In this document: piece after piece, positions 20,901-62,123 of the stretch | How the letters are laid out: each line of letters opens with the position of its first letter | How positions within the stretch are numbered: position 1 is the stretch's first letter | Source: an uncultured Gemmatimonadales bacterium | Lineage (GTDB): Bacteria > Gemmatimonadota > Gemmatimonadetes > Longimicrobiales > Gaopeijiaceae | Assembly (NCBI GenBank): GCA_963809895.1 | Contig: CAWELD010000003.1 | Location: 416,001 to 480,000, forward strand | DNA: 64,000 bases | Reading direction: 5' to 3' | Position numbers and translations under genes: made by a program | Notes under the pieces: generated by a model | What the model saw: only the letters and a program-made list of their open reading frames with translations | Databases searched by the model: none | Told to the model about the DNA's origin: nothing

Positions 20901-21424
20901 ACGACCTGCGTGCCGCCATCCGCCAGATCAACCAGACCGCCACCGAGCTCTTCTTCGGCACCTTCGAGAAGATCCGAGAGAACTTCAAGACGGTGCACCG
21001 ACGCCTGTTCGAGGGCGGTGAGGCGGACATCTGGCTCGCCGACGAGGAGGATCCCCTGGAATCGCCGGTGGAGATCCACGCCTCGCCCCGGGGCAAGAAG
21101 ACCCAGCGCATCGACCTGCTGTCGGGCGGGGAGCGGGCGCTCACGGCCCTCTCGCTCCTCTTTTCGATCTACCTGGTCAAGCCCAGCCCCTTCTGCGTGC
21201 TGGACGAGGTGGACGCGCCGCTGGACGAGAACAACATCGGCCGCTTCATCCGGCTCCTGCACGACTTCAAGGAGCAGACGCAGTTCGTGGTCATCACCCA
21301 CAACCCGCGCACCATCGAAGCGGCGGACTGGATCTACGGCGTGACCATGGAAGAGCCCGGCGTGAGCACCATCGTGGGCGTGCGCCTGGAAGATGCTCTC
21401 GAACAGGCGCGAGGCGCCGCGTAG
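17906..21424 (+). CDS. smc: Chromosome segregation protein SMC
   Basis: GFKSF...GPNGCGKSNI, coiled coils, hinge, LSGGE, LDEVDAPLD, VITHN. Confidence 0.98.
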   Translation: MKLRSLRVHGFKSFADATEVQFHDGITAIVGPNGCGKSNISDAIRWVLGEQRPTAIRGAKMEEAIFQGSVNRRPVNRGSVTMTVTNEDGALPVPFEEVEIGRIVYRDGGSDYTLNRTNVRLKDVVDLTRDTGLGANAYNVIENRMIDAILSDRADERRALFEEAAGIGKYKDRRKAALRRLERAEMDLQRLEDVISEVETKVRSLARQKGKAERYLQYRARRLDVEVAVVRHQLDTLTGRLAEVNRHLAGDTVEGEGKVAEVRAAEAEYESLRIQQVEAQKARSASAARLDEIRSELVRWERDLAVADERATYARRRLSQIEGERSEARSRAETAGAESEELAEDLSVVESELASAEAELEERRSTANEVRARLQEAREALESLESREREIARRGAQLEGDAESSEAQAAELGRRLERLGRELEEAADTVSDLESQGDLFSGRLDLLKREVDTARGAARAGAAEVEAAREALEEARAAEVEISDRAQALRARRAALEALERDREGMEPAVQAALDAGIEGVHGPLVDFVRADEDVAPAVEAFLGPLARGLVVADDAAAERARRWFTEDWGKGGGLVLLPLDRAPGSGPAGTLLGAVEATGEGAPWVRALLAGVDLVDEDGLMGGSGGARVTRKGATREASGIVRVGNPTGSGGLLERKGELRKLVKDAERASTAAAEAREAREAARETLRAREEALEVARQAARVAEDTHRQAAAEVAEAVDRKDRADRHRDELARQVEGTRAARARAQERARQAREDRQGLLAEEEGLRDRRAEARSAVEAVQEEWEVARSEQASLEVQATRLQGERSRLSERAGAVDRARASALARTEALDREESQLRTELEQVAATQQEGADATEALFQRREEAQQELRARDTALNEVGEALAAAERKARQARQAEREATDRRHRLELERQELEGRIGRIQDRLEGEWGRPLADLMAEAQPVEGEQEALQEELREIVVALERIGPVNMLAVEEHAEESQRLEFLKEQHADLIKARDDLRAAIRQINQTATELFFGTFEKIRENFKTVHRRLFEGGEADIWLADEEDPLESPVEIHASPRGKKTQRIDLLSGGERALTALSLLFSIYLVKPSPFCVLDEVDAPLDENNIGRFIRLLHDFKEQTQFVVITHNPRTIEAADWIYGVTMEEPGVSTIVGVRLEDALEQARGAA

Positions 21425-59590: not shown

Positions 59591-59635
59591 AGGGAGCGCA
59601 TGAGGCGGCCGCGGTCCGTGTTATCTTCCGTCGCC

Positions 59636-60598
59636 ATGCCTGCCACCCCCTCCGCGCCTGCCGGCGCCTCGCCGGCTTCCAGCCCCTCCACCCTGGCGGT
59701 GGTGGGGGCGTTCGCGGCGGTCTACGTCATCTGGGGGTCCACCTATCTCGCCATCCGCTTCGCCATCGAGTCGATTCCGCCCTTCTCCATGGCGGGCGTA
59801 CGCTTTCTAGTGGCAGGCCTGATCCTCATGGGCTGGGCCCGCGCTCGGGGGGTGCCCGCGCCCACGCGAGCCCAGGTCCGGGACGGCGCGGTGGTGGGCG
59901 GGCTCCTGCTCCTGGGAGGAAACGGAGCGGTGGTGTGGGCCGAGCAGTGGGTACCGTCGGGTCTCGTAGCCCTCCTGGTGGCCACCGTCCCCCTGTGGAT
60001 GGTCCTCCTCGACTGGTTGTGGTCCGACGGCGCCCGGCCGTCGGCGGGCCTCTGGGGCGGCCTGGTCTGGGGTCTCTTCGGGGTCGGGCTGCTCGTGAGT
60101 GGGCGGGAGATGGGGGGCGGTGGGTCGCGAGAGCTCGCCGGAGGCCTGGTGGTCCTGTTCGGGGCGCTGTCGTGGGCCGCCGGCTCCATCTACTCGCGCT
60201 CCGCCCGGGTGCCGCCGGCGCCCCGCATGGCCACGGCCCTCCAGATGCTGTGGGGCGGCGGCATGCTGCTCGCCGTCGGAGGCGTCACCGGGGAATGGCC
60301 GCGGTGGGCCGCCGCGACGCCCTCCACCCGTTCGGTGCTGGCCCTGGCCTATCTGGTCGTGTTCGGGTCGCTGGTGGCCTTCGCCGCCTATATCTGGCTG
60401 CTGACCGTGACGACTCCGGCGCGAGTGTCCACCTACGCGTACGTGAATCCCGTGGTGGCACTGGTCCTGGGCTGGGCGTTGGCGGGAGAGCCACTGACGC
60501 CCCGCACGGGTGTGGCGGCGGCGGTCATCCTCTCGGCGGTGCTGGTCCTGAACGTGGTGGGCGTTCGCCGTCGGCTGGCCCGTGCCGAGCGTGCCTGA
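59636..60598 (+). CDS. EamA/DMT-family transporter (YedA-like)
   Basis: VYVIWGSTYLAIR, PSGLVALL, YLVVFGS, STYAYVNPVVA. Confidence 0.93.
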   Translation: MPATPSAPAGASPASSPSTLAVVGAFAAVYVIWGSTYLAIRFAIESIPPFSMAGVRFLVAGLILMGWARARGVPAPTRAQVRDGAVVGGLLLLGGNGAVVWAEQWVPSGLVALLVATVPLWMVLLDWLWSDGARPSAGLWGGLVWGLFGVGLLVSGREMGGGGSRELAGGLVVLFGALSWAAGSIYSRSARVPPAPRMATALQMLWGGGMLLAVGGVTGEWPRWAAATPSTRSVLALAYLVVFGSLVAFAAYIWLLTVTTPARVSTYAYVNPVVALVLGWALAGEPLTPRTGVAAAVILSAVLVLNVVGVRRRLARAERA

Positions 60599-60651
60599 GA
60601 TTGCGCCTCGGGCAACCGGGTTGGACGGAGGTCGGTCCAATTCGTAGTCTT

Positions 60652-60925
60652 GAAGGGTGTTGAAGAAGTGGGGTGCGGCCGCGCGCAGGGGTCTTACGGA
60701 TGCCAGGGTAGGAAGAGTGGCGAAAGCGATGCTGTAGCATCGGTGAGCCGCTCTGACGACGCCTGGCGCCGTAACCCCCCTGCGCCCGAAGGGTTGGGGC
60801 GGCATGGCCCCATCTTCGTCGTTGGCACGACTCGACGTAGCTTTGGCTATGCCTTCGCCGCGCCGCCTTGAAGCTGGAGCCATGGCGCTCCCAACGCGGC
60901 TCGCCCCATTTCTTCAACACCCTTC
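60652..60925. mobile_element. MITE-like non-coding element with terminal inverted repeats and two internal homologous hairpins
   Basis: TIR GAAGGGTGTTGAAGAAGTGGGG (60652-60673) / CCCCATTTCTTCAACACCCTTC (60904-60925), 21 of 22 match; hairpins 60683-60785 and 60793-60895. Structure is directly visible; mobility is inferred. Confidence 0.7.
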
Positions 60926-60971
60926 TACTCCTGAATCGACGTCGCCCTGGAGCACCCATCGCCGAGAGCGG

Positions 60972-62123
60972 ATGACCGTCTATCTGGACTTCGCAGCCAC
61001 GTCTGCGCTGCGTCCCCCCGAAGTCGCCGAGGCCGTGAGCACCTTCCTGGCCCGATGTGGAGCCACACCGGGCAGGGGCGGGCACGCCCCCGCGGTGGAG
61101 GCGGGGCGGATGGTACTTCGATGCCGCCGCGCGCTCCTGGATGTGCTGGGGCTCGATGGCGGTGACCCGGGGCGGCTGGCGTTCACGCACAACGCCACCC
61201 ACGCGCTCAACACGGCGCTGCGGGGCGTCCTGCGTCCGGGCGACGTCGTGGTGGGGACGGACTTCGATCACAACGCCGTGGTGCGACCCCTGTACGCGCT
61301 CAGGCGGGAGCGTGACCTGGAGGTGCGCGTGGTCCCGGGAGCCACCGACGGATCGCTGGATCTGGCGGCCTTCGACCGTGCCCTCGACGGTGCTCGCCTG
61401 GTGGTCCTGAACGGCGCCTCCAATGTTCTCGGCACCGCCTTGCCGGTGGGCGAGCTGGCCCGCCGAGCTCGGGCGGCGGGCGTGTTGGCGCTGGTGGACA
61501 CCGCGCAGACCGCCGGCCACCTGGTCCAGGACCTGAAGGACGCCGACCTCGTCGCCGTAACCGGCCACAAGGGGCTGCTGGGGCCGCAGGGCACGGGCGC
61601 CCTCTGGGTCCGCCCCGGGGTCGAGGTCGAACCGCTGCTCCGGGGAGGGACGGGTGGTGACTCGATGAACCCCGAGATGCCGGAGGCCATGCCGGATCGC
61701 CTGGAGGCGGGCACGCTCAACGGCCCGGGGATCGCCGGCCTCGAAGCCGGATGCCGCTTCGTGGCGGAGCGGGGCGTGGACACCATCCACGCGCACGTCT
61801 CCGCCCTCAAGGCTCGGCTGCACGAGGGGCTGTCGGCCCTCGCGGGTGTCGACGTGCTGTCGCCCCCGGCGCCCGACGGCCCCGGTATCGTCACCATTCG
61901 CGCCCATTCCATGGATGCGGCGACGCTTTCGCATCGTCTGGAACGGGACTTCGGTGTTCAGGCGAGAGCGGGGCTCCACTGTGCACCGGGTGCTCACCGG
62001 CTCCTGGGCACCGCGTCCACCGGGGCCCTGCGCTTTTCGCTGGGCTGGGCATCGACGGCCGACGATGTGGATCGGGCGCTCGAGGCCGTTACAACGCTGG
62101 CGGCGCCGGTTCGGGCTTCCTGA
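60972..62123 (+). CDS. Class V aminotransferase / cysteine desulfurase-family protein
   Basis: YLDFAATS, NATHALN, DHNAV.RP, SNVLG, DTAQTAG, GHKGLLGPQG, RAGLHCAP. Confidence 0.9.
   Translation: MTVYLDFAATSALRPPEVAEAVSTFLARCGATPGRGGHAPAVEAGRMVLRCRRALLDVLGLDGGDPGRLAFTHNATHALNTALRGVLRPGDVVVGTDFDHNAVVRPLYALRRERDLEVRVVPGATDGSLDLAAFDRALDGARLVVLNGASNVLGTALPVGELARRARAAGVLALVDTAQTAGHLVQDLKDADLVAVTGHKGLLGPQGTGALWVRPGVEVEPLLRGGTGGDSMNPEMPEAMPDRLEAGTLNGPGIAGLEAGCRFVAERGVDTIHAHVSALKARLHEGLSALAGVDVLSPPAPDGPGIVTIRAHSMDAATLSHRLERDFGVQARAGLHCAPGAHRLLGTASTGALRFSLGWASTADDVDRALEAVTTLAAPVRAS

Follow-up and report, generated by a model that had tools for sequence, protein, structure and literature searches.

A probable MITE at a CTAG-type site in a Gemmatimonadales genome carries twin structured modules that may act in transcripts

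Introduction

Bacterial MITEs are usually seen as decayed shells of insertion sequences (ISs). REPs are 20–40 bp in length and are not known to have IS-type terminal inverted repeats (TIRs) and a 4-bp duplication among their features. Several described families share part of their make-up with the element reported here. MITEPye1 of Paracoccus yeei, linked to ISPye18 of the IS1182 family, is likewise intergenic and ORF-less, with 18-bp IS1182-like TIRs, 4-bp direct repeats and a long predicted stem-loop (PMC11578231). Its helper was inferred rather than demonstrated. It differs from the present element in having 1–3 copies per chromosome, and the accessible part of its description contains no cross-phylum module, twin inverted modules, change of ends or polarity (PMC11578231). 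MITEPsy1 of Pseudomonas syringae, which is IS5-type, has an 18-nt TIR of similar pattern ending in CTGAAAAAG, and uses CTAG/YTAA sites with a 4-nt duplication. Unlike the present element, it is 100 nt long and its transposition has been shown by experiment, and the portion of the report at hand mentions no such structured module (PMC3189936). ERIC/IRU and Correia/NEMIS are also hairpin MITEs that are co-transcribed, and differ in their TA termini and other end types; in Yersinia, ERIC affects mRNA stability through RNase E in an orientation-dependent manner (PMC2229807), and by analogy it may serve as a model for how the module described below works. REP/REPIN sequences with RAYT share a strand-specific imperfect hairpin with an AA/GC internal mismatch (PMC3733652). 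Their tag, a terminal GTAG/CGTC on a 20–40-bp palindrome, is not what we find: here GTAG is internal to a 103-nt arm and variable, with GATG or GTGG in homologues.

For the interior, the closest system is the Gmet_R1005 family of Geobacter metallireducens, intergenic and multicopy, whose central palindrome GRCGTAGCGCTGCTACGCC is the core of our module. Its 24 members were reported as 'predicted short RNA elements' and taken as a possible regulatory RNA, not a transposon (Aklujkar 2009, PMC2700814). It has one palindrome against two here, and the likeness is drawn through the central palindrome alone. We found GRCGTAGCGCTGCTACGCC letter for letter in four loci (L054, L075, L125 and L139). Written as GRCGTAGC-loop-GCTACGCC, the palindrome is thus exact in these four and is present in the window with another loop, in hairpin 2.

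The kind of element, a MITE, is therefore already known, and the module core has been in print since 2009 as a Geobacter 'predicted short RNA' (PMC2700814). What we describe belongs to that known kind and has inside it a structured module that is widely shared and unexplained. In the literature covered, the twin-module element, the exchange of ends and the polarity are undescribed; the collections of Weinberg 2017 and of the 2024 50-genome survey (250 mobile or repeat candidates) may hold the motif. Desulfotalea-1 and four other motifs of Weinberg 2010 were considered and rejected, as those shown there differ from the module, and no motif with the core words turned up in the accessible part of that work's supplementary files.

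Results

Anatomy of the element

The window analysed here is a 64,000-nt stretch of the genome of an uncultured Gemmatimonadales bacterium (assembly GCA_963809895.1, hereafter G000; contig CAWELD010000003.1, positions 416,001–480,000). An EamA-family transporter gene (59600–60598, + strand) is followed after 373 bp by a class-V aminotransferase gene (60972–62123, + strand), and the element sits in the gap. Both genes lie wholly outside the element, which is crossed by long GC-rich frames only.

The TIRs, at 60652–60673 and 60904–60925, are complementary at 21 of 22 positions, as an earlier note on this DNA had stated. That note gave a size of 274 bp, of which the anatomy stands and the extent needs trimming. 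The outermost G (60652) and C (60925) are most likely part of a 4-bp flanking duplication, with CTTG (60649–60652) and CTAC (60925–60928) as its left and right remnants (family consensus, CTAG/YTAR). With these bases assigned to the flanks, the element proper is 272 bp (60653–60924), bounded by 21-bp TIRs (left, 60653–60673, + strand; right, 60904–60924, − strand) and devoid of a transposase gene, as befits a MITE. It lies on the + strand in what we call the 'sense' orientation, that of most copies relative to flanking genes. The duplication of this copy has decayed, such that 2 of 4 positions match.

Inward of the TIRs, the closing stem continues at 60674–60682 (+ strand), which pairs with 60896–60903 (+ strand). 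It encloses hairpin 1 (60683–60785), the more variable arm, which shows the purine-loop form of the module on the + strand and has its core at 60710–60761; a central mini-hairpin (60786–60792) reading C-GAA-G on the + strand and C-UUCG-G on the − strand; and hairpin 2 (60793–60895), the best conserved arm, which shows the purine-loop form on the − strand and has a core (60868–60817) that recurs across phyla. The module model matches hairpin 1 at 60698–60770 (+ strand, 68 bits) and hairpin 2 at 60808–60880 (− strand, 84 bits), both being training rows themselves. No promoter- or terminator-like site was found within 60560–61000.

Copies and empty sites

The element proved to be dispersed and multicopy. 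G000 contains 11 full-length copies, one truncated copy and several solo ends. Two full copies are of the window's type, the second (C10:1083256) being 93% identical, and the remaining nine, of 301–349 bp, have a related end. The solo ends, found at C3:131604, 2662778, 2355415, 1679875 and 2214212, at C4:91366 and 188861, and at C10:1206210, lie in several cases beside gene ends, which suggests older insertions with deleted interiors. A DNA search gave matches in 34 of 61 related genomes including G000, several being single weak matches, and among the matches listed the nearest named ones were from Gemmatimonadota. Among the matches listed for four DNA runs, whose contigs were short, there was no joint across the element. 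A search of plasmids returned one 32-nt match (E 0.07), and that of phages none.

At 12 of 27 other aminotransferase loci, all from the same genus, eamA lies directly upstream, with a gap of 14–103 bp as opposed to the 373 bp here; the module model found nothing at any of the 27. The element is thus absent from the orthologous site in all 12 congeners that keep the gene pair. These empty sites and the number of copies, together with the target duplication and IS-like ends described below, bear out the earlier proposal of a non-autonomous mobile element. In addition, a single-module relative in a Lachnospiraceae genome splits an IS110 transposase ORF with CTAG on both sides (continuation of the ORF judged by eye).

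Target sites and flanking duplication

Flanks were compared in two partly overlapping sets. In the first, of 72 bounded copies (four rows mis-anchored), CTAG stands on both sides in 28 and an identical non-CTAG pair in 6. In the second, drawn from five near-closed genomes, both boundaries could be set for 71 of 91 copies; flanking 4-mers are identical in 23 (CTAG/CTAG in 19, other pairs in 4) and non-identical in 48. After removal of three mis-anchored rows (n=68), an A at left base 4 is accompanied by an A at right base 4 in 4 of 5 copies (p 0.009), and a T at right base 1 by a T at left base 1 in 3 of 4 (p 0.016). Such rare bases common to both flanks are the signature of a 4-bp duplication. 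Departure from CTAG increases outward (10, 15, 22 and 40 of 136), and mismatches between flanks occupy 30 of 152 positions in older copies and 5 of 60 in young ones; for the 15 young copies, 0.7 would be expected from interior divergence. From these patterns, we read the flanks as a YTAR duplication that probably decays faster than the constrained interior. Less probably, the duplication is one of 2 bp (TA), the G being terminal to the element, or the joining follows another chemistry.

An IS1272-type stem-loop replacement was rejected, as it predicts no duplication (PMC5678879) and one is seen here.

CTAG is scarce in G000, with 780 occurrences against about 4,700 expected. Among the 52 copies with an inward-pointing gene, 25 adjoin its stop codon. 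Two loci show elements stacked end to end with one CTAG in common, namely an IS701 with a two-module MITE (L095:957-2711) and an IS1182/IS5-type IS with a single-module MITE (L330:936-2630).

Ends and the putative helper

The end pattern has a match in 29 of 251 genomes of the order. Inspection of 30 such loci revealed two that enclose a 1.5-kb transposase gene (L219 and L230), and a protein search led to two further ISs (L236 and L330). All four are CTAG-flanked ISs of 1.5–1.6 kb with the window's end type. The best end match, 16 of 17 nt, is between one end of L219 and the first 17 nt of the window's left TIR. Their proteins score 242–268 bits against IS1182 (cut-off 270) and 159–184 bits against IS5_4 (cut-off 140), that is, just under the one and over the other, and we therefore write the family as IS1182/IS5-type, meaning either one. 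The L230 and L330 proteins have DUF772 and DDE domains. The earlier note could assign the element to no named family; a named kind does fit, MITEs with IS1182/IS5-type ends.

Inside L219, L230, L236, L330 and L032, the last holding the frameshifted IS1182 of G000 described below, the module model has no match. Thus, the interior of the element is no deletion remnant of these ISs. The distribution of the transposase differs from that of the element as well: the L230-type protein occurs in 4 of 61 relatives, none of which has a DNA match to the element. Neither IS1182 nor DDE_Tnp_1 was found in the near-closed carriers G003, G015, G028 and G060 (1–20 contigs), and no intact matching transposase was found in G000 or in these four. 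The IS1182 of G000 is frameshifted and has a different end type, and the genome's other DDE_Tnp_1 elements and its IS110 elements have, among the inverted repeats listed, no ends in common with the element. Identical element copies nevertheless occupy different sites in G000 despite the helper's absence. As the carriers lack a matching transposase, the copies would be orphans of a helper that passed through.

The frameshifted IS1182-family element itself (G000:C10:1011483-1012985; L032:681-2183) has 29-nt inverted ends and CTAG/ATAG-type flanks. Its end type is found on module-bearing MITEs elsewhere (L196, L025 and L042) and on no full G000 copy found.

Twin modules and their fold

On either strand, the predicted fold has one closing stem and two long arms, with a short CC-GAA-GG mini-hairpin between the arms. 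The minimum free energy is −184.3 kcal/mol for the + strand (z −13.1) and −173.4 kcal/mol for the − strand (z −12.0), and 0 of 200 dinucleotide shuffles are as low in either case. The core of hairpin 1 read on the + strand and that of hairpin 2 read on the − strand agree at 32 of 52 positions without gaps, the number obtained earlier by hand; shuffles average 14.5, with none of 20,000 exceeding 27, and the best same-strand match is 23 of 52. The whole 103-nt arms are identical at just 44 of 103 positions, which locates the homology in the core.

Covariation was assessed in 23 two-module homologues, in which double changes occur at 62 of 82 predicted pairs. Any transposon should show double changes in its terminal stem, and the arms themselves were therefore aligned. 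The rows, 16 of 23 hairpin-2 and 8 of 23 hairpin-1, were picked visually for having a canonical core, a choice that works in favour of the result; in them, 18 of 22 pairs show double changes and 92% of cells are paired. The covariation score is 0.565, compared with 0.172 for shuffled and at most 0.141 for slid alignments, the shuffles ignoring relatedness. In the hairpin-1 rows left out, there is instead a variant stretch in which G.A tandems are repeated. The conserved unpaired parts of the module are a GAA/GA loop and two AA/GC loops, which are purine-rich on one strand only. With RNA energies, hairpin 1 folds better on the + strand in 21 of the 23 homologues and hairpin 2 on the − strand in 18; with DNA energies, the counts are 17 and 8. 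Thus, the two hairpins are homologous and covary, as first supposed, and covariation together with strand asymmetry supports the accompanying claim of selection on a strand-specific single-stranded fold.

The idea that each strand must present one module did not hold up. Among 71 end pairs, both arms were scored in 60, hairpin 2 only in 9 and hairpin 1 only in 2, some probably mis-scored, in loci that had been chosen with the module model. There is also an ends-only element of 49 bp, lacking any interior, between two CTAGs (L208:1501-1557). Bounded forms with a single module or with none show that a module on each strand is dispensable, and copies favour one orientation (see below).

Further variation is seen among relatives. 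Five module matches stand in tandem with an exact 113-bp period at G213:C1:4469315-4469838, and 160-bp single-module elements with another end type occur alongside two-module elements in G272 (C1, near 4137370 and 4770957). Mini-hairpins of 18–30 nt inserted into stems enlarge some copies and add branches (G000:C3:2766405-2766755 and several G249 and G272 copies), and the same few inserts recur at differing positions among copies. Subfamilies of ~300 bp have a 30–40-nt AT-richer spacer in place of the central mini-hairpin. This spacer, which contains CAT/ATG/TATGA-like words (e.g. the C3:949624 copy of G000, and L017, L049 and L216), could be a promoter remnant.

The module across phyla and exchange of ends

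A pattern for the module tip matched at least 122 loci, which are spread over many phyla and show ends of many types. Bacteroidales, Clostridia, Actinobacteria, Gammaproteobacteria, Deltaproteobacteria, Myxococcota, Gemmatimonadota and others are represented. Many of these loci are hairpins of 160–350 bp with quite different ends, often flanked by CTAG or YTAR, and many others have no detectable end pair. The lower AGGC/AACG loop, which is outside the search pattern, lies at a symmetric distance in 16 of 70 non-redundant cross-phylum loci; the shuffle mean is 1.8 (maximum 9) and the opposite strand gives 0. Its distance to the core is 7 nt in 8 loci, 15–19 nt in 7 and 22–25 nt in 1. The module is far older than the ends of the window element. 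It is also new to Rfam: the best match over the element scores 15.7 bits against a gathering threshold of 90, and none was found over the module in 20 cross-phylum loci.

A fixed partner gene was considered and rejected, the 123 ORFs neighbouring the cross-phylum loci being heterogeneous; four of them are transposases (IS630-like, IS110, IS701 and IS4-like), none enclosed by the element's ends.

Similar interiors are found between different ends. In one genome, the interiors of L173 and L196 differ at 6 of 234 positions and both of their ends at 7 of 17, and the end of L196 agrees with that of the frameshifted G000 IS1182 at 16 of 17 positions. When six end types are mapped on a tree of 106 interiors, 16 changes are required (minimum 5), part of which may be point evolution, as just about 3 of 17 positions separate end types A and B. 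L002, a nested chimera of two end types, is a plausible intermediate of such an exchange.

Orientation relative to genes and replication

Orientation was scored for 91 copies from five near-closed genomes, using our own crude dicodon gene caller and local GC skew. Between co-directional genes, 46 copies are sense and 10 antisense (p 1e-6), and the genomes individually give 7:2, 7:1, 9:2, 12:5 and 11:0. The bias has the same direction in an overlapping set (22:5) and in cross-phylum loci (10:2). Relative to replication, 37 copies are leading and 28 lagging (p 0.32), with 26 of the 91 having no replichore call, and lagging-strand operons still show 8:1 sense. Orientation therefore tracks transcription and not replication, which favours an effect at the transcript level. 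A model based on lagging-strand single-stranded DNA was rejected, replichore orientation giving it no support.

Given the sense bias, hairpin 1 is usually present in the mRNA in its purine-loop form and hairpin 2 in the weaker form with pyrimidine mismatches. For a functional RNA, it is odd that the best-conserved arm should mostly appear in its weaker form on the transcribed strand, and this counts against our preferred reading.

Discussion

Our preferred explanation, to which we give a probability of about 0.6, is that of a MITE that inserts at CTAG-type sites, is moved in trans and carries transcript-acting twin modules. Its parts differ in strength. That the element is a MITE is very probable. 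Judged from the ends and the protein scores, its helper is likely to be a transposase of the IS1182/IS5 type. For a transcript-level role of the module, the balance tips slightly in favour. Weighing against the explanation, no intact matching transposase was found in carriers, the flanking 4-mers disagree in 48 of 71 bounded copies, and the module was not found in the autonomous ISs.

The mechanism we envisage is as follows. A passing IS1182/IS5-type transposase would read the 17–21-bp ends and move the element in trans, by cut-and-paste insertion with a 4-bp YTAR duplication. The duplication would then decay, while inner bases are kept or corrected, lengthening the stem. Bursts of copying would take place while a matching IS is present, and the IS would be lost afterwards. 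New ends might be acquired through nested insertion and deletion or through recombination, and a new end might be copied to the opposite end by stem-guided template switching. The module would act when the element is co-transcribed with host genes, its purine-rich internal loops (the GAA/GA tandem and the two AA/GC loops) forming a putative surface by which a host factor that binds or processes RNA recognises it. Copies with the strong form of hairpin 2 in the mRNA would be purged more often than those with it on the template strand.

A more far-reaching, and tentative, possibility is that the folded module, rather than the ends, is the evolving unit. It would then be a pan-bacterial structured parasite whose phased purine loops bind a conserved host nucleic-acid-binding protein, and which outlives its helpers by swapping ends among IS1182, IS5, IS701-like and other YTAR-targeting families; with the same reserve, the window element would be its two-module form.

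The main rival, somewhat doubtful, is a reading in which the MITE is the same and the module works as folded single-stranded or cruciform DNA, read by a host DNA-binding protein or by the transposase. Reading of the mismatches would raise mobilisation or protect the palindrome, and the polarity would reflect transcription-coupled exposure of one strand. Consistent with this, the conserved loops lie 7 nt apart in 8 loci or 15–19 nt apart in 7, that is, about one helical turn more, and the strong form of the best-conserved arm is usually outside the mRNA. The central loop fits a C-RNA-G triloop, which is stable in DNA. Furthermore, the tandem G.A and AA/GC mismatches recall the AA/GC loop that an E. 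coli RAYT needs in REP single-stranded DNA (PMC3733652). Against it stand the lack of replichore bias (37:28) and the loss of the strand asymmetry of hairpin 2 when DNA energies are used (8 of 23). Moreover, bounded elements with one module or none imply that the module is not needed for movement, and the autonomous ISs do without it.

We consider it improbable that the interior of the MITE is functionless, with template-switch correction of quasi-palindromes making the compensatory changes and the core hitch-hiking between MITE families. The stem double changes do have few intermediates, minimal elements lack the module, and in L173 and L196 perfect pairs have taken the place of the lower loop in hairpin 2, an outcome that template switching would produce. 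Template switching, however, erases mismatches, whereas here the same purine loops persist, on one strand only and between varying helices, in many phyla; the 46:10 polarity would also be left unexplained.

The enzyme involved might belong to a different class, either HUH/RAYT or recombinases of the IS110 type that act on a CT core, in which case the ends would be the mere foot of a hairpin. The frequent non-identity of the flanking 4-mers, the missing DDE transposase in carriers and three IS110-family genes in G000 point that way. This is very improbable, given that two different types of DDE-type IS end are matched at 16 of 17 positions, that the correlated non-consensus flanks indicate a true duplication, and that the 123 neighbouring ORFs include no transposase lying between the element's ends. 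Of 20 genomes of the genus none gave a Y1/HUH transposase (Y1_Tnp), and of 36 of the family one did; the suggestion of a REP/BIME-type mobiliser accordingly finds no support. Finally, a host non-coding RNA gene readable in both directions, also raised in the earlier note, accords with the very stable fold of both strands and with the first description of the core as a 'predicted short RNA' (PMC2700814), yet is hardly credible in view of copies dispersed in unrelated contexts, empty orthologous sites, IS-type ends and the lack of a promoter- or terminator-like site (60560–61000) and of an Rfam family.

This MITE departs from the picture of a decayed IS shell. Conservation is higher in its interior than at its ends, and the interior recurs in many phyla, was found in none of the autonomous ISs examined and has a polarity that goes with transcription. 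If the loops bind a host factor, they would constitute a widespread, unannotated RNA or single-stranded DNA motif that, often adjoining stop codons, could tune operon expression. The exchange of ends would also account for the persistence of orphan MITEs. If the loops do nothing, this is an ordinary MITE family, which is worth adding to repeat and covariance-model libraries to guard against false ORF and ncRNA calls.

Two minor observations concern the surroundings of module matches. In the window, a weak match of the module model (20976–21056, 16.6 bits) falls in a coding sequence that by eye resembles an SMC-type gene, and is taken as chance. At L121:475-574, ~150 bp separate a small SRP RNA gene from an element with the module.
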